DNA of 63,368 nt, filler included, from Actinomycetota bacterium (GTDB lineage Bacteria > Actinomycetota > Acidimicrobiia > IMCC26256 > VFJJ01): NCBI GenBank assembly GCA_009886115.1. It is 6 parts of 6 records of this genome, joined end to end, with 100 filler letters (N's around TTAATTAATTAA, not from the genome) between each part and the next. Parts side by side here need not be neighbours in the genome. Positions count along the whole stretch, not along the records: positions 1 to 11,300 come from VFJJ01000194.1; 5 more parts are not named here. One strand, written 5' to 3'. Shown here one piece after another: positions 2,360 through 58,711 of this stretch. The notes below the pieces were generated by a model. The model worked only from the letters and a program-made list of their open reading frames with translations. It was not told the DNA's origin and made no database searches. The position numbers were made by a program, and so were the translations under genes. Positions within the stretch are counted from its first letter, which is position 1; each line of letters opens with the position of its first letter.

Positions 2360-2588
2360 CGTTCTCCCGGTCGGTCGACGTTGAGCGCCGGTGATGGTAT
2401 CGACGGGGTCGGCCCGCGGCCACCGACCCCGAATCGGGTACGTCCAGCGTGCGCTCGATGCGCGACGCAGCCCAGGGGACGTCCGACACGACACCGCTCC
2501 GTTCTTTGCGTCCACGGTCATCCCTGGAGCGGCCTGAGACACAAAGAAGCGGGTGCAGTCGGCCATCGCGGTCCGGCATGATGTGTCG

Positions 2589-4028
2589 ATGGCTGAGGCC
2601 GTGCGGAGCGACGACCAGCGAGATCCCGAGCCGTTCGATGCTGTGGTCATCGGCGGAGGTGTGGTCGGCACGGCCGTCCTCCGGTCCTTGTCGCGCTCGG
2701 GGTTTCGGCGCGTGGCCCTGGTCGAGGCCGCGCCCGACATCGGAGCCGGGACGAGCAAGGCCAACACGGCGATCCTCCACACCGGCTTCGACGCCACGCC
2801 GGGCACGCTCGAGGCGGCGCTGGTCGCTCGGGGCTACCGATTGCTCGGCGACTACGCCGCGGCGACGGGGATCGCCCTCGAACGCACCGGAGCGGTGCTC
2901 GTGGCGTGGGACGACGAGCAGCTCGAGCGGCTGCCCTCCCTGCACGAACGGGCCGAGGCCAACGGCTACCGCGAGTGCCGGCGCCTGAGCCGAGGCGAGG
3001 TCTACGGGCTCGAGCCCCACCTGGGCCCGGGAGTCCTTGGCGGCATGTCGGTGCCCGGCGAGGCCATCATCGACCCGTGGAGCCCGGTGTTCGCCTTCGC
3101 CGCCGAGGCGATGCGCAACGGCGCGCAGGTCATGCGATCCCTGCCGGTACTGGCGATCACGAGTGGCGGCCCCCACGGCAGCCGCTGGGCGATCGAGACG
3201 CCGAGCCGGGTGCTCACGACCGACTGGCTCGTCAACGCGGCCGGGCTGCGCTCCGACGAGATTGACCGGATGATCGACACGGCGACCGGGCGCGGGGTGG
3301 GCGGCGTGCGCAGCGGAGCGTTCACGGTGACACCCCGCCGGGGCGAGCTGATCGTGTACGACAAGCTCGCCCGTCCCCTGGTGAACCACATCGTGCTCCC
3401 CGTGCCGAGCGCGTCGACCAAGGGTGTGCTGGTTTCCCCGACCGTGTTCGGGAACGTGATGGTCGGGCCGACCGCCGAGGACATCACCGACAAGGACGAC
3501 CGATCGACCACGGCGGCCGGTGTGGCTGCGCTCGTCGCGTACGCCCGGCGCATCATCCCGGACTTGGCCGGCGAGGAGATCACGGCCACGTACACCGGGC
3601 TGCGGGCGGCCACCGAGCATGCCGACTACCAGATCGTCGTCGACCGCGAGCGGCGTTACGCGTGCATCGGCGGGATCCGCTCGACCGGTCTCACGGCCAG
3701 CTTGGCCATCGCCGAGCATGTCGTCGCCGAGATGGGCGCAGGCGGTGAGCGATCTCCCGGCGAGCTGGCCCCACCGCCGCGGATGGCCAACCTGGGTGAG
3801 GCGACGACCCGGCGCTACCAGACCTCCGGGTGCGGGCCGATCGTGTGCCACTGCGAACGGGTGACCCGCAGCGAGATCCTCGAAGCGATGGCCGGTGAGC
3901 TCCCTCCCGTCGACCTCGACGGCCTACGCCGGCGTACCCGGACCCTGGCCGGTCGGTGCCAGGGCTTCTTCTGCCTCGCCGACGTGACGTCGCTGTTCAC
4001 CTCGTCCCCCGTCCGGGCGTCGCATTGA
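2589..4028 (+). CDS. FAD-dependent oxidoreductase (GlpA/LhgO-like) with C-terminal BFD-like [2Fe-2S] domain
   Basis: VIGGGVVG, TSKANTAILHTGFD, CHCERVT..GRCQGFFC. Confidence 0.9.
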   Translation: MAEAVRSDDQRDPEPFDAVVIGGGVVGTAVLRSLSRSGFRRVALVEAAPDIGAGTSKANTAILHTGFDATPGTLEAALVARGYRLLGDYAAATGIALERTGAVLVAWDDEQLERLPSLHERAEANGYRECRRLSRGEVYGLEPHLGPGVLGGMSVPGEAIIDPWSPVFAFAAEAMRNGAQVMRSLPVLAITSGGPHGSRWAIETPSRVLTTDWLVNAAGLRSDEIDRMIDTATGRGVGGVRSGAFTVTPRRGELIVYDKLARPLVNHIVLPVPSASTKGVLVSPTVFGNVMVGPTAEDITDKDDRSTTAAGVAALVAYARRIIPDLAGEEITATYTGLRAATEHADYQIVVDRERRYACIGGIRSTGLTASLAIAEHVVAEMGAGGERSPGELAPPPRMANLGEATTRRYQTSGCGPIVCHCERVTRSEILEAMAGELPPVDLDGLRRRTRTLAGRCQGFFCLADVTSLFTSSPVRASH

Positions 4029-5401
4029 GCAGCCCGACCTTCGACGTGGTGGTCGTCGGCGGTGGCCCGTCGGGCCTGGCCGCGGCGACCGCGCTGCGCC
4101 AGCAGGGTGCGGGACGGGTCGCGGTGCTCGAACGCGAGCGCGACGCCGGCGGGACGCCACGCCACAGCGCCCACACCGGGTTCGGGGTGCGCGACCTCCA
4201 TCGAGTGATGAGCGGCCCTCGCTATGCCTCGACGCTGGTGGCGCGGGCCCGGCAGTGGGGCGTCGACCTCCTGTGCGCCACGACGGTCACGGGCTGGGCG
4301 TCCGGCGAGCCCCGGACGGGCGACGCGATCCGTGCGGGGGGCTGGACGTCCGGCGGTACCGCGGCGGGCGACGCGATCAGCGACTCCGACGACGCCGGGC
4401 CCGCGGGTCACGCCCCAACGAGCACGGGCGGGCAACGCCTCACGATCGCCAGTGCCGACGGTCCGGGCGAGATCACGGCGTCGGCGGTCGTGTTGGCCAC
4501 CGGATGTCGCGAGCGCCCGCGGGCGGCCCGCGCGGTTGCCGGCGATCGCCCGGGGCGGGGAGTCCTGACCACGGGAGCCTTGCAGCAGTTGGCGATGAAC
4601 GCGATGACGCAGGCACAAGTAGGCCGCCGTGCCGTGGTGGTAGGCGCCGAGCACGTGTCGTTCTCAGCGGTCATGACCCTGGCGCATGCCGGATGTCGGA
4701 CGGTGGCGCTGGTCACCGAGCACCGTCGCCACCAGACCTTCGCGACGGCGCGCGTCGGCGCGGCCCTCCGGTGGCGGGCGCCCGTCCACACGAGCTCGCG
4801 GGTGACCGCGATCATCGGCCGGCACGGCACCGTCGAAGCGGTCGAGATCACCGAAATCGGCACCGCCCGCGTTCGGCGGATCGAGTGCGACACGGTCGTG
4901 TTCAGCGGCGACTGGATTCCCGATCACGAGCTGGCCCGCATCGGCAGGCTGACGATCGACCCCGGGTCACGCGGCCCTGTCACCGACCAGGGCGGGCACA
5001 CGTCTCGCGAGGGTGTCTTCGCCGTGGGGAACCTCGTGCATCCGGCTGAGGCGGCCGACGTGTGCTCCCTGGCCGGACGGGCCGTGGCCCCGGCCGTCGT
5101 GGCGTATCTGAGGGGCGGGTCCTGGCCCGCGGCTCCCGTCGCCATCGTCTGCGATGCGCCGCTGCTGTGGGTGGCTCCTGGCGCGATCACGCTCGGGCTC
5201 GGACCGCCGGGGCGTCACCGGCTCATCGCTCGAGTCGACCAGCTCGTGCGGTCGGCGCAGCTCGTGGTGGAACAGGACGGGCGGCTCCTCGACCGCCAGC
5301 GCCTCGGACGGTTGGTGCCGACCCGTCCGGTCGAGATCGACGCCGGCTGGATGGCCGGCGTCGACGCCGCTGCCGGTCCCGTCACCATGCGCCTGCGCTA
5401 A
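4025..5401 (+). CDS. FAD/NAD(P)-dependent pyridine nucleotide-disulfide oxidoreductase family protein
   Basis: TTG start overlapping upstream stop; VVGGGPSG, ATGCRER, TSREGVFAVGN; carries a low-complexity insertion of about 40 aa. Confidence 0.85.
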   Translation: MSSPTFDVVVVGGGPSGLAAATALRQQGAGRVAVLERERDAGGTPRHSAHTGFGVRDLHRVMSGPRYASTLVARARQWGVDLLCATTVTGWASGEPRTGDAIRAGGWTSGGTAAGDAISDSDDAGPAGHAPTSTGGQRLTIASADGPGEITASAVVLATGCRERPRAARAVAGDRPGRGVLTTGALQQLAMNAMTQAQVGRRAVVVGAEHVSFSAVMTLAHAGCRTVALVTEHRRHQTFATARVGAALRWRAPVHTSSRVTAIIGRHGTVEAVEITEIGTARVRRIECDTVVFSGDWIPDHELARIGRLTIDPGSRGPVTDQGGHTSREGVFAVGNLVHPAEAADVCSLAGRAVAPAVVAYLRGGSWPAAPVAIVCDAPLLWVAPGAITLGLGPPGRHRLIARVDQLVRSAQLVVEQDGRLLDRQRLGRLVPTRPVEIDAGWMAGVDAAAGPVTMRLR

Positions 5402-5493: not shown

Positions 5494-6435
5494 TCACGGG
5501 AAGGCGATGACGAACCGGCCGCGGGCGCCGCCGGCCTCGAGGCGGCGATGGGCCTCGGAAGCAGCCGAGGCGTCGATCACGGCCGCCACTCGCAAGCTCA
5601 GCGCCCCGGCCTCGACCTGAGCACGGAGCCGGTCGAGCAGGTCGGCCCGGCGGTCGTACTCACGCACCCAGGCGGTGTGGAAGGTGATGGTGCGCTCGCC
5701 GGTTCCCGCCCAGCCCCGTACCGAGGCGTACGCGCCGCCGTCTCTGATGGCGCTCACGACGAGCTCGTTCTGCACCGACCCGTCGGCGAGGCCGTCGACG
5801 CCTCCCGGGCAGGCGGCGAGGATGCTCGCCGCGACGTCATCGCCGCGGGGCACCACGATGTCGGCACCCAGCCTGCGCACGAGCGCCTCGTCGACGGCCG
5901 ACGCATCGGCGACGACGCGCAATCCGTCGGCCTTGGCCAGCTCGACGACGTATCCGCCGTAACAGCCCGCCGCGCCCGTCACGGCGAGGGTCTGGCCCGG
6001 CCGCAGCGCCAACTGGTCGAGCGACAGGCGAGCCGTGAGCCCGTTCATGGGCAACGTCGAGGCTTCGGCGTGGCTCGACCCGACGGGAGCCCGAGCCACG
6101 GCGTCGGCCCACAGCACGAGGCTCTCGCGGTAGGCGCCATGACTCGCCTTGGGGATCACCATGGCCATGACGGCGTCGCCCACCGAGAGGTCGGTCTCGG
6201 TGCCGTCGCCGATCTCGTCGATCACGCCCGCCGCGTCCATACCCGGGATGTACGGCGGGGGATCCTTGGCGAGCGCCGCAGCCCGCGATCCGATGCGGTG
6301 ATGGGTGTCGGTGGGGCTCACCGCAGCCGCGTGCACCCTGATGCGCACCTGTCCAGGACCGGCGTTCACCTCGTCGAGCTCGACGAGACGCAGCACCTCC
6401 GGCCCACCGAACTCGACGACCCCGACTCCACGCAT
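5494..6435 (-). CDS. NADP-dependent MDR-family (quinone) oxidoreductase
   Basis: [27 protein letters not shown]. Confidence 0.9.
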
Positions 6436-6548
6436 GGCTTGCCCCCAGGCCGGTCGCGACCCCCGCGGGTCTGCGTTGGAGCCAAGCTTGGCGCACTCGC
6501 CGATGCGATGTGTTGCCGCCCGCTGAGGGCAGGCGTGAGACTCGGGAC

Positions 6549-7595
6549 GTGCCCACCGAAGACATGGCGTTCCTCGACCTGTTCGACGATTCCCCCGAGG
6601 CGCTGTACGAGCTCTTCGAGGCCCGGGGTTGGGGCGACGGCCTGCCGTTGGTGGCCCCGACCGAGGATCGGGTCGCCGCCATGCTGGGGGCCTGCGCCGG
6701 TCGCGACCCTGACGAGGTCGTGGCCGTGCTCGCACCCCGGTTCGGCAAGGCCACCCGGCGCTCGATCGCCGTCAACGCCGTGCTCGCCGGATGCCGGCCC
6801 GAGTGGATGCCCGTGCTGGTGACGGCGATCCGGGCGCTGGGTGTGCCCCGGGTGAACCTCCGGGGCGTGAACGCCACCACCCACCCCGTGTCGGTTTTGA
6901 CGATCGTGCACGGCCGAGCCGTCGACGATCTCGGCTTCAACAGCGGCCTGGGCGTGTTCGGCCCCGGCAACCGGGCCAACGCCACGGTCGGGCGAGCCGT
7001 GCGCTTGGTGTTGCTCCACGTCGCCGGGGCGTCTCCGGGGACCGGCGATGCGTCGACCCAGGGGCAACCGTCGAAGTACACCTACTGCGTCGGCGAGAAC
7101 GTCGCTGCGTCGCCCTGGGGCGGCTACCACCGCAGCGCCGGTGTCGACGCCGAGTCGGCCGTCACCGTCCACTGCGGCGAGAACCCCCACAACTTCCACG
7201 ACATGGAGTCCGACGAACCGGCCGGCATCCTCGAAAAGGCCGCGTCGGCCATGGCGTCATTGGGGATGAACAACGCCTGTATCTCCGAGGGTGAGTTCTT
7301 CGTGGCGCTGTGCCCCGAGCACGCAGCCACCATCGCCGCCGCCGGTTGGTCTCGAGCCGACGTGTCGGCGTACCTGTACGAGCGGGCCCGCCTGCCGGCG
7401 TCGGCCTTCCGCGAGGCCTTCGCGAATCGGCGCTGGCGCCCGTGGATGCACTCCGTGCCCGATGACCATCTCCTGCCCATGACCGACAGCCCCGACAACG
7501 TCAAGGTGTTCGTCGCCGGCGGCGCCGGCAAGCACTCGTGCGTCATCCCGTCGTGGGGCGTGACCACGTCGGTCACGCTGGCCCTCGAACCGTGA
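6549..7595 (+). CDS. Conserved hypothetical protein, probable partner of the UGSC-type selenoprotein
   Basis: Intact ORF with GC3 bias; motifs GWGDGLPLVAPT, NATTHP, GNRANATVGRAVRL, QGQPSKYTYC, GGAGKHS. Confidence 0.85.
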   Translation: MPTEDMAFLDLFDDSPEALYELFEARGWGDGLPLVAPTEDRVAAMLGACAGRDPDEVVAVLAPRFGKATRRSIAVNAVLAGCRPEWMPVLVTAIRALGVPRVNLRGVNATTHPVSVLTIVHGRAVDDLGFNSGLGVFGPGNRANATVGRAVRLVLLHVAGASPGTGDASTQGQPSKYTYCVGENVAASPWGGYHRSAGVDAESAVTVHCGENPHNFHDMESDEPAGILEKAASAMASLGMNNACISEGEFFVALCPEHAATIAAAGWSRADVSAYLYERARLPASAFREAFANRRWRPWMHSVPDDHLLPMTDSPDNVKVFVAGGAGKHSCVIPSWGVTTSVTLALEP

Positions 7596-7633
7596 GCTCC
7601 CCCGGGCCCCCGGGCCCGCCTCGGCCTACGGAA

Positions 7634-7672
7634 CATCGCAATCATCGCAATCATCTCGATCGTCTCGATCAT
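7634..7672. repeat. Degenerate 9-nt tandem repeat (ATCGCAATC / ATCTCGATC) upstream of the UGSC gene RBS
   Basis: atcgcaatc atcgcaatc atctcgatc gtctcgatc. Confidence 0.7.
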
Positions 7673-7695
7673 TCATTGGTCGCAAAGGAGAAGCT

Positions 7696-8220
7696 GTGAT
7701 TCGCATCCTGTCCCCCGAAGGTGACGTCGGAACCCCGCCGGCCGAGTTGGCTCCGGCCCCGACCGTCCTGACCGGTCGCCGGATCGTCGTGCTCGACAAC
7801 GGAAAACCCAACGCCCGCTTGGTCATGGAGCACGTCGCCCGTCGTCTCGCCGAGCGGACGGGCGCCGTGGTCGGCACGACGGTGGCCAAGCGGGGCGGCG
7901 CCGCCACGCCCTCCGACGACGACGAGCTCGCCGCGGTTCGAGCCAGTGCCGATCTCGTGCTCACGGGATCGGCCGATTGAGGATCGTGCACGTCGTGGAG
8001 TGTCCACGACCTCGTCGAGCTGGAGAAGAGCGGTATCCCGACCGTCGTCGTCACCACGACGCACTTCGAGACCCTCACCCGAACGGTGGCATCGAGCTTC
8101 GGTCTGGCCCGAGCCCGAACTGCGGTGATGGAACACCCGTTGGGCGGCACGGCTGAACACCTGCTGCTCGCCCGGGCCGACGCCATCGTCGACCGGGTGC
8201 TCGAGCTCCTGACCACCTAG
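7696..8220 (+). CDS. UGSC-family selenoprotein, 174 aa, Sec at TGA 7978-7980
   Basis: AAGGAG RBS and GTG start; frame continues past TGA as D-U-G-S-C-T-S-W-S-V-H-D..LEKSGIPTV..EHPLGG to TAG 8218-8220, 12 nt before the next gene; hairpin after the TGA. Confidence 0.85.
7992..8010 (+). promoter_or_regulatory. Putative bacterial SECIS hairpin
   Basis: GTCGTGGA-GTG-TCCACGAC perfect 8-bp stem starting 11 nt after the in-frame TGA, with GU in the loop. Confidence 0.7.
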
Positions 8221-8232
8221 CGCTGGCGAGGA

Positions 8233-9180
8233 ATGCCCATGAGAGCCGTGAGGAACACCACCGACGGGATCAAGGTGGTGCAAGTCCCGTCCCCCGAGCC
8301 GGCGCCCGGGAGCGACGGCGTTCGCATCAGGATCCGTAGCGCCAGCATCTGTGGCACCGACCTCAACATGCTCGCCATGGGGCCGGCCGACTACACGATC
8401 GGCCACGAGTTCGGCGGCGAGCTGCCCGACGGCACGCCGGTGGCCATCGAGCCCATCGCCCCCTGCCACGAGTGCGACCAGTGCCGGGCCGGGGTCTCGA
8501 ACCGGTGCCGGAACTTCACGAACTACGGGATCTTCTGGGACGGCGGCCTGGCTGACGAGATCATCGTCGACCCCCACTGCCTCGTTCCCTTGCCCCGGGC
8601 GCTCCCGGTGGCCAACGCCGCCTTGTGCGAGCCGGCATCGGTGGCCTTGCACGGCATCCGGCGGGCGTCGACCCAGGGTGGCGAGCGGGTGGCGATCGTC
8701 GGCGGAGGCTCGATCGGCCTGCTCGCCGCGGCGGCAGCTCGACGTCTCGGCTGCGAGGTCGACGTGGTCGCGCGGCATCCGGCCCAGCTGGCCGCGGCCG
8801 AGAAGATCGGCGTGGGTCGCTCGACCAGCGGCGAGTACGACGTGGTCGTCGATGCTGCCGGATCGGCGTCGGCGGTGGCCGCCGCGTGTGACCTGGCTCG
8901 CCCGGGAGCCCGGCTCGTGCTCCTCGGCGTGTACTTCGACATGGTCCCGCTGCCGGGCACGACCTCGCTCGTCAAGGAGCTCACGATCCTCCAGTCGATG
9001 GCGTACTGCCGTCACGCCGGCGGTCGCGACTTCGACAACGCGGCGATCATGTTGGCCGAGCAGCCCGAGATCGCCGAGGCCATCGTCACGCACCGCTTCG
9101 GTCTCGACGATGCCCCCGAGGCCTTCCGGGTCGCTGCCGACCGGGCTGCCGGCGCGATCAAGGTCGTGCTCGAGCCGTGA
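8233..9180 (+). CDS. Zn-dependent alcohol dehydrogenase (MDR family)
   Basis: ICGTD, GHE, CHECDQC..NRC, VGGGSIG. Confidence 0.92.
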   Translation: MPMRAVRNTTDGIKVVQVPSPEPAPGSDGVRIRIRSASICGTDLNMLAMGPADYTIGHEFGGELPDGTPVAIEPIAPCHECDQCRAGVSNRCRNFTNYGIFWDGGLADEIIVDPHCLVPLPRALPVANAALCEPASVALHGIRRASTQGGERVAIVGGGSIGLLAAAAARRLGCEVDVVARHPAQLAAAEKIGVGRSTSGEYDVVVDAAGSASAVAAACDLARPGARLVLLGVYFDMVPLPGTTSLVKELTILQSMAYCRHAGGRDFDNAAIMLAEQPEIAEAIVTHRFGLDDAPEAFRVAADRAAGAIKVVLEP

Positions 9181-11300: not shown

Positions 11301-11400
11301 NNNNNNNNNNNNNNNNNNNNNNNNNNNNNNNNNNNNNNNNNNNNTTAATTAATTAANNNNNNNNNNNNNNNNNNNNNNNNNNNNNNNNNNNNNNNNNNNN
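11301..11400. other. Artificial contig linker (N run with TTAATTAATTAA)
   Basis: Same 100-nt construct occurs five times. Confidence 0.98.
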
Positions 11401-21885: not shown

Positions 21886-21985
21886 NNNNNNNNNNNNNNN
21901 NNNNNNNNNNNNNNNNNNNNNNNNNNNNNTTAATTAATTAANNNNNNNNNNNNNNNNNNNNNNNNNNNNNNNNNNNNNNNNNNNN
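21886..21985. other. Artificial contig linker
   Basis: N run with TTAATTAATTAA. Confidence 0.98.
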
Positions 21986-31354: not shown

Positions 31355-31454
31355 NNNNNNNNNNNNNNNNNNNNNNNNNNNNNNNNNNNNNNNNNNNNTT
31401 AATTAATTAANNNNNNNNNNNNNNNNNNNNNNNNNNNNNNNNNNNNNNNNNNNN
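31355..31454. other. Artificial contig linker
   Basis: N run with TTAATTAATTAA. Confidence 0.98.
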
Positions 31455-55547: not shown

Positions 55548-55647
55548 NNNNNNNNNNNNNNNNNNNNNNNNNNNNNNNNNNNNNNNNNNNNTTAATTAAT
55601 TAANNNNNNNNNNNNNNNNNNNNNNNNNNNNNNNNNNNNNNNNNNNN
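55548..55647. other. Artificial contig linker
   Basis: N run with TTAATTAATTAA. Confidence 0.98.
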
Positions 55648-58611: not shown

Positions 58612-58711
58612 NNNNNNNNNNNNNNNNNNNNNNNNNNNNNNNNNNNNNNNNNNNNTTAATTAATTAANNNNNNNNNNNNNNNNNNNNNNNNNNNNNNNNN
58701 NNNNNNNNNNN
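58612..58711. other. Artificial contig linker
   Basis: N run with TTAATTAATTAA. Confidence 0.98.

Follow-up and report, generated by a model that had tools for sequence, protein, structure and literature searches.

A UGA-containing UGSC-family gene of an Acidimicrobiia genome, its predicted selenoprotein product and a linked 'Unknown_1' partner

Gene organization and reading frame at the UGSC locus

We have analysed a gene call that ends at an in-frame TGA codon in the genome of an Actinomycetota bacterium of the class Acidimicrobiia (assembly GCA_009886115.1). The window, meaning the whole stretch of DNA that was analysed, is 63,368 nt long and consists of several contigs joined by N spacers (11301-11400, 21886-21985, 31355-31454, 55548-55647 and 58612-58711), so that gene order across these spacers is meaningless. 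The locus itself is located on genome contig C1 of 11.3 kb, where a partner gene, the gene under study and a dehydrogenase-family gene follow one another on the same strand (Table 1). The longest ORF of the partner gene begins at 6510 and would encode 361 aa. The 100 nt that separate the partner gene from the UGSC gene contain CATCGCAAT and ATCATCTCG repeat units, one 9-nt unit of which is missing at 7634 in a near-identical strain sequenced in another study (run X5 contig); the copy number of the repeat differs between strains. Scanning 6300-8500 for promoters and terminators detected none. A homologue of the downstream dehydrogenase-family gene adjoins the UGSC-partner pair in only 3 of 37 loci (L024, L025 and L030), and this gene is local context whose linkage to the pair is not conserved.

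Table 1. Features of the UGSC locus, in window coordinates
Feature	Position	Strand	Basis or remark
Partner gene, 'Unknown_1' domain (P0002), 343 aa as called	6564..7595	+	no Pfam/NCBIfam model
9-nt tandem repeats in the spacer between partner gene and UGSC gene	7634..7672	+	period 9; 2.4 and 3.6 copies
Shine-Dalgarno-like AAGGAG	7685..7690	+	5 nt before the GTG start, read from sequence
Predicted UGSC-family selenoprotein gene, 174 aa, Sec at residue 95	7696..8220	+	GTG start 7696, TAG stop 8218-8220
UGA codon, predicted to be read as selenocysteine (U95)	7978..7980	+	homologue column U/C; TGA kept in independent assembly
TGC, Cys98, putative resolving Cys of the U-G-S-C motif	7987..7989	+	C98 and G96 invariant in 35 aligned sequences
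Putative SECIS hairpin, 8 bp (7992-7999 with 8003-8010), loop GUG	7992..8010	+	pairing conserved in Sec forms
Next gene, Zn-dependent alcohol-dehydrogenase-family protein, 315 aa	8233..9180	+	profile matches; local context

An earlier note on this DNA had proposed that the 94-aa ORF is the front part of a 174-aa protein in which UGA specifies selenocysteine (Sec). The frame described there is reproduced on the sequence: the 94-aa ORF ends at the in-frame TGA, translation past this codon remains open for 79 further codons up to the TAG and yields 174 aa, the following ORF begins with ATG after a gap of 12 nt, and the TGA places U within the motif S-A-D-U-G-S-C. Codon usage past the TGA, described as normal, gave codon-position G+C values of 0.66, 0.51 and 0.85 in frame. 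The third-position value of 0.85 compares with 0.65 and 0.49 in the two shifted frames, indicating that the part downstream of the TGA codes in the same frame. The accompanying view that the genetic code is not altered genome-wide also stands, since TGA is the stop codon of 1470 of the 1771 long, high-GC3 ORFs in the genome.

Family membership and predicted decoding of the UGA codon

The 174-aa product matches the Pfam family PF24696 ('UGSC family') with an E value of 1.3e-44 and 152.8 bits, compared with a cut-off of 25, residues 4-173 aligning with positions 2-171 of the 172-position model. NF041046, 'UGSC family (seleno)protein' (UGSC_fam), is the top NCBIfam match, more than 100 bits above the next family, and its score of 122.1 bits (E 1.8e-35), computed with C in place of U, lies 2.9 bits below the curated equivalog cut-off of 125. 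Both models are matched by all 35 aligned homologues. The window copy resembles the catalogued family in its full-length profile match, a predicted UGA-encoded Sec in U-G-S-C, a putative SECIS directly downstream, the existence of Cys homologues and linkage to the 'Unknown_1' domain; apart from the 2.9 bits by which it falls under the NF041046 cut-off, it differs from the family in nothing essential. Judged by these profile matches, the gene is a member of a catalogued, curated family that has been in print since 2007/2008 and is not new, and the link between UGSC and 'Unknown_1' is likewise already published. The earlier proposal of a hidden UGA recoding is supported in its Sec reading, but the recoding is not newly found, as the UGSC family has models in both Pfam and NCBIfam. 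The window adds no new principle and provides a clean example of a known family.

The family was introduced as a 'UGSC-containing protein' of function not known (Zhang and Gladyshev 2007, PMC1976440), in a paper that gives Hyphomonas neptunium as one carrier. In the GOS ocean survey, Table 2 of the 2008 paper (PMC2398784) gives 255 Sec forms and 21 Cys forms, and the same paper places UGSC among the five families richest in selenoprotein sequences and finds its use to be most frequent in samples of non-marine origin. In aquatic metagenomes, UGSC ranks among the commonest selenoproteins. It is included in reviews of 2022 and 2026 in passages that assign it no function (PMC9312934, PMC13188914), the latter counting it among selenoproteins with largely uncharacterised functions, and a search of the full-text literature for UGSC function found no paper that assigns one.

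When 61 genomes belonging to this order were searched in six frames, 77 UGSC matches were obtained in 33 of them, with exactly one in-frame TGA in 60 matches and no stop in the remaining 17. Eight of the stop-free homologues were read at the Sec column and carry Cys in all eight cases. Alignment of homologues at this column, a check named in the earlier note, showed 29 loci with U and eight with C among the 37 compared, as a Sec/Cys position would. The pattern [U/C]-G-x-C holds without exception across these loci, and neither G96 nor C98 varies in the 35 aligned sequences. Genome G054, flagged as unpublished, is the source of three of the 77 UGSC matches and, among the 37 loci, of L027; no conclusion depends on it.

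The perfect 8-bp hairpin that had been noted 11 nt after the TGA, with GU in its loop, is present (loop G-U-G) and lies within the codons for S-W-S-V-H-D. Taken alone, the hairpin is no better than chance in DNA of 69.5% G+C, with a z score of -0.89 for the 61-nt fold and 36 of 200 shuffles folding as well; its weight as a SECIS element is due to conservation and covariation. In an alignment of 28 of the 29 Sec forms, omitting one cut by a contig end (L034), the eight pairs are formed in 205 of 224 cells (91.5%; 197 of 216 without L027), compared with 18-49% when the 3' partner columns are slid by 1-3 positions. All eight pairs are found in 18 of the 28 Sec forms and in none of the eight Cys forms, in which 38 of 64 cells (59%) are paired. 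Columns 27/33 pair as C-G in 12 rows, as G-C in another 12 and as G-U in two, and a TGG to TGC change (Trp to Cys) in the 5' arm goes together with a synonymous GTC to GTG change in the 3' arm. Two-sided changes are observed for three pairs in total, with a covariation score reached by none of 500 shuffles. In these alignments, only the Sec forms conserve the predicted hairpin, and they show compensatory changes in it. Ten of the 28 Sec forms retain 5-7 of the eight pairs at the same register, one of which (L056) seems to use a hairpin located further downstream.

Conservation of this block extends to other metagenomes, in which many short contigs match 7972-8010 only and diverge on both sides, producing a depth spike at 7965-8026 that reaches 213 vs ∼16 in run X5 and 337 vs ∼2-19 in run X6. 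Combined, these observations indicate that many different genes share the UGA-hairpin block as a conserved nucleotide sequence. A search of the hairpin region against Rfam gave no family match, with chance-level hits only, located elsewhere (E 0.44 to 9.6). The model of a bacterial SelB-dependent SECIS is that of E. coli fdhF, which the UGSC element resembles in being a stem-loop inside the coding sequence that starts 11 nt past the UGA and carries G and U in the apical loop. In contrast to the fdhF-type element, the UGSC stem is a simple helix of 8 bp closed by three loop nucleotides (alternatively 7 bp closed by five), in which a bulged U is not evident and which no Rfam model matches.

The machinery required for Sec decoding, whose presence the earlier note had proposed to check, was sought in the 224 contigs of the genome, which is 95.6% complete. 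selA (458.7 bits), selB (293.7 bits, or 320.5 with a C-terminal piece), selD (398.4 bits) and tRNA-Sec (66.2 bits; anticodon TCA by ARAGORN) are all detected over their cut-offs. The other check, for reads carrying TGC or TGT, is answered by a contig of 4257 nt from an independent DNA run of a different study (run X5, record 6), which spans 7500-8400, differs from the window by three letters and the 9-nt deletion at 7634, and has no difference listed at the TGA. A 204-nt contig from an RNA library (run X7, record 24) shows 0 differences to the window and also carries the TGA. Short contigs over the UGA-SECIS block were recovered from RNA runs X7 and X10; since RNA libraries can hold DNA, these are not counted as proof of transcription.

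Two readings would remove the Sec residue altogether. The TGA could be a true stop, leaving a 94-aa protein and a decayed or separate downstream piece, i.e. a pseudogene or split gene, consistent with the ORF obtained under table 11 and with TGA being the commonest stop in the genome. Against this reading, the 79 downstream codons retain the coding G+C pattern and align to the C-terminal half of PF24696, 60 of 77 homologues carry a single TGA at this very column, the stop-free forms read there having Cys, and the modelled fold, with a pLDDT of 92.8, is a single domain needing both halves; we consider a true stop very improbable. Alternatively, the TGA could stand for a TGC or TGT that was misread in sequencing or assembly, the gene then encoding an ordinary Cys form, and such forms do exist in the family at 8 of 37 loci. 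The TGA, however, is retained in both the X5 contig and the RNA-library contig, and the hairpin is intact in the window but complete in none of the eight Cys forms, rendering an error hardly credible. The Sec reading of the TGA is almost certainly right on the strength of these comparisons. The UGA would be decoded by the standard bacterial pathway, the mRNA hairpin recruiting SelB that carries Sec-tRNA(Sec), which would be supplied by SelD and SelA, and we infer that Sec is inserted into the UGSC protein of this organism. With respect to annotation, the 94-aa call is wrong and should be replaced by a 174-aa selenoprotein with a transl_except at 7978-7980; the seven other UGSC copies of the genome require the same correction.

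The 'Unknown_1' partner and a predicted complex

The partner protein matched no family model in Pfam or NCBIfam, and among 40 partner-family sequences there was no match to GrdE or PrdA, nor to any other model consistently. Of the 37 UGSC loci, 36 have a partner homologue as a same-strand neighbour, which lies upstream of the UGSC gene in 24 cases and downstream of it in 12; the single exception (L053) is situated near a contig end. The partner block AVNAVxAGCxPE...ATT...VNGP is identical to that of 'Unknown_1' when compared with the alignment in Fig. S1A of PMC2398784 (Zhang and Gladyshev 2008), the text and figure of which report this domain fused to UGSC. The partner family is large, with more than 3145 clusters at 90% identity, the named ones labelled 'hypothetical protein' and several derived from Acidimicrobiia MAGs, and 4974 clusters at 50% identity (E <= 0.001). 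In the ESM Atlas only unnamed clusters were obtained for the partner; in the nearest named cluster, 16% of the members carry PF24696, probably as a result of fusions. Three partner-family proteins (P0190, P0200 and P0266) are, at 713-741 aa, approximately twice the usual length and show two or three stretches of match without any further Pfam domain, suggesting tandem duplications of the partner domain.

UGSC parts are present in the same polypeptide, in both orders, in 55 of the 150 best partner-family representatives. Twenty of these fusions have a full N-terminal UGSC domain, 31 start with the post-Sec half of UGSC only and four are partner-first, ending at the Sec position; the 31 are gene calls restarted after the TGA. 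The residue U or C at the motif is missing in half of the 20 fused representatives and thus not every family member can be redox-active. A fusion is also encoded in this genome (G000), where a single 570-aa frame on contig C193 (L063:6932-8644) contains a UGSC domain with predicted U103 and the partner domain, a frame seen under table 11 as ORFs of 102 and 460 aa.

The AlphaFold2 model of the UGSC protein (pLDDT 92.8, 35-row alignment) has a three-layer alpha/beta, flavodoxin-like fold, in which residue 95 is positioned at the N-terminal end of helix 96-111, directly after strand 87-93, with Cys98 one helical turn on. This modelled geometry would suit a selenol/thiol redox pair cycling through a selenenylsulfide. 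The structural matches listed comprise flavodoxin, azoreductase, CheY-receiver and B12-binding-like domains, with no thioredoxin among them, and are led by 8s7v_H (128 residues aligned at a Z of 11.5 and an rmsd of 2.7). In this respect the model differs from the Trx-like fold which, together with a general redox role, is suggested for UGSC in PMC2398784 (2008). The listed matches lend that fold no support, though a list without a thioredoxin does not disprove it. The UGSC profile gave only weak matches to PDB sequences, to a HisF half-barrel and flavodoxin (E 1.8e-4 to 3e-3), and the partner profile gave matches with E >= 0.5 only. The partner model is likewise of high confidence (pLDDT 94.9, 77-row alignment); its best Foldseek match has an E of 3.7e-4 and a TM of 0.22 (class I fumarate hydratase, cyclic amide hydrolases), and its best VIA match a Z of 5.8, none reaching 8. 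Judged from the model, the partner appears to be without a clear solved structural relative, an outcome that does not show the fold to be new.

Complex formation was modelled with P0134, a natural fusion of 541 aa from another organism that carries C-G-S-C at 95-98 and is ∼46% identical to the partner in the window; the protein was split into its two domains and modelled with the alignment of the 20 fused representatives. An ipSAE of 0.68 was obtained, in comparison with 0.01 for the best of three controls, a mark reached by 116 of 157 solved complexes and by 2 of 215 mismatched pairs. Agreement between runs extends to at least 88% of contacts, with a partner pLDDT of at least 87, and as no similar complex has been solved, the score is unlikely to reflect a memorised structure. 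The model thus supports binding between UGSC and partner, the two chains being halves of one natural protein and the outcome a prediction, not a measured one. On the UGSC side, residues 95-97 and 99-101, at the C-G-S-C motif, are part of the predicted interface, as are, on the partner side, the invariant P221, T222 and V226 and the nearly invariant P246, T293, T294 and N340. The meeting of the motif with conserved partner residues in this model suggests an active site built across both parts. By extension, the UGSC protein and its partner would be expected to form a comparable complex in this organism.

A third reading accepts the selenoprotein as real and has it act alone as a small thioredoxin-like carrier, the 343-aa gene being merely co-transcribed. 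The Trx-like fold and general redox role suggested in PMC2398784 are in accordance with such a carrier, as is the 100-nt, repeat-holding spacer that separates the two genes. A solitary carrier does not, however, agree with the adjacency of the partner in 36 of 37 loci in either order, with fusions in both orders including one in this genome, with a P0134 model that passes its controls and has the redox motif at the interface, or with a flavodoxin-like model having no thioredoxin among its listed structural matches. We therefore regard independent action as unlikely, to a lesser degree than the two readings that remove Sec. Very probably, 7696-8220 is one gene for a 174-aa UGSC selenoprotein whose UGA is decoded via the SECIS hairpin and which probably constitutes a two-subunit enzyme with the upstream partner.

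A possible selenoenzyme and its paralogues

In the enzyme as we envisage it, UGSC and the upstream 343-aa 'Unknown_1' protein would be two subunits, with the U-x-x-C motif facing the conserved P-P-T, A-T-T and N motifs of the partner. The selenol/thiol pair would cycle via a selenenylsulfide and act on a substrate held by the partner. Selenoproteins of the GrdB/GrdF/GrdH/PrdB type are paired with a distinct second subunit that binds the substrate, and thioredoxin returns them to the reduced form. Weak likeness to these proteins was detected with models for glycine, sarcosine and betaine reductase (GrdB, GrdF, GrdH) and D-proline reductase PrdB (TIGR01917, TIGR01918, NF040794 and TIGR04483). 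Fifteen of the 35 UGSC homologues match TIGR01917, glycine reductase selenoprotein B (best E 4.1e-5), 11 match GrdF, six TIGR01918 and one PrdB, and GrdH is also matched. The likeness is always located around the Sec position, window residues 82-153 aligning with 334-399 of the 431-position model, and PrdB itself is listed with a UxxC motif in Table 2 of PMC2398784. In contrast to members of TIGR01917 and TIGR01918, UGSC scores 17.9 bits vs a cut-off of 602.2 and 12.1 bits vs 65.45, respectively, placing it outside both families. It also differs from the GrdB/PrdB systems in its length of ∼170 aa and in that no pyruvoyl-proenzyme partner (GrdE or PrdA) was matched. On these profile comparisons, the similarity is a lead to mechanism, not a sign of membership.

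The genome contains eight UGSC genes, each with a TGA and each adjacent to or fused with a partner copy, one pair being fused. The seven other copies are found on contigs C154, C179, C193, C149, C101 (two) and C44 (loci L054-L067). A congeneric genome (G001) has nine UGSC genes and the remaining genomes of the order 0-4. The table of a 2016 survey of more than 5200 genomes (PMC5029168) lists 33 UGSC genes in 26 organisms, and the eight copies here, nine in the congener, contrast with the ∼1.3 genes per carrier genome tabulated there. Around the seven other pairs are genes for short-chain and Zn dehydrogenases, luciferase-like monooxygenases, P450s, acyl-CoA enzymes and amidohydrolases, and within this gene context no neighbour is shared except the partner. 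The neighbours of the eight pairs vary between loci and point to no common pathway.

A more far-reaching suggestion, which we advance tentatively and consider doubtful on balance, is that UGSC and 'Unknown_1' represent an uncharacterised class of thioredoxin-linked selenoenzyme resembling glycine and D-proline reductase. Sec would attack a substrate on the large subunit and Cys98 would resolve the adduct to a selenenylsulfide, and in this Acidimicrobiia-like lineage the class would have radiated, giving each genome 8-9 paralogue pairs, every one specific for its substrate and set among different catabolic oxidoreductase genes. The features of use here are a strictly linked partner without a solved relative, a predicted interface carrying the Sec motif and an unusually large paralogue set, and for these reasons the lineage is a reasonable one in which to seek the substrates of the enzyme.

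Reducing power would probably be derived from a thioredoxin-type system. Of 14 long partner-family proteins that were scanned, two carry a fused disulfide-reductase module, namely Pyr_redox_2 in P0130 and ferredoxin-thioredoxin reductase beta in P0226. Upstream of the UGSC-partner pair and on the same strand, two flavoprotein genes occupy 2553-5401, whose link to the pair is unproven because a minus-strand quinone-oxidoreductase-like gene stands between. The first encodes a DAO-family FAD oxidoreductase with a BFD-like [2Fe-2S] domain and the second a Pyr_redox_2 protein, of the family that is also fused to the partner domain in P0130.
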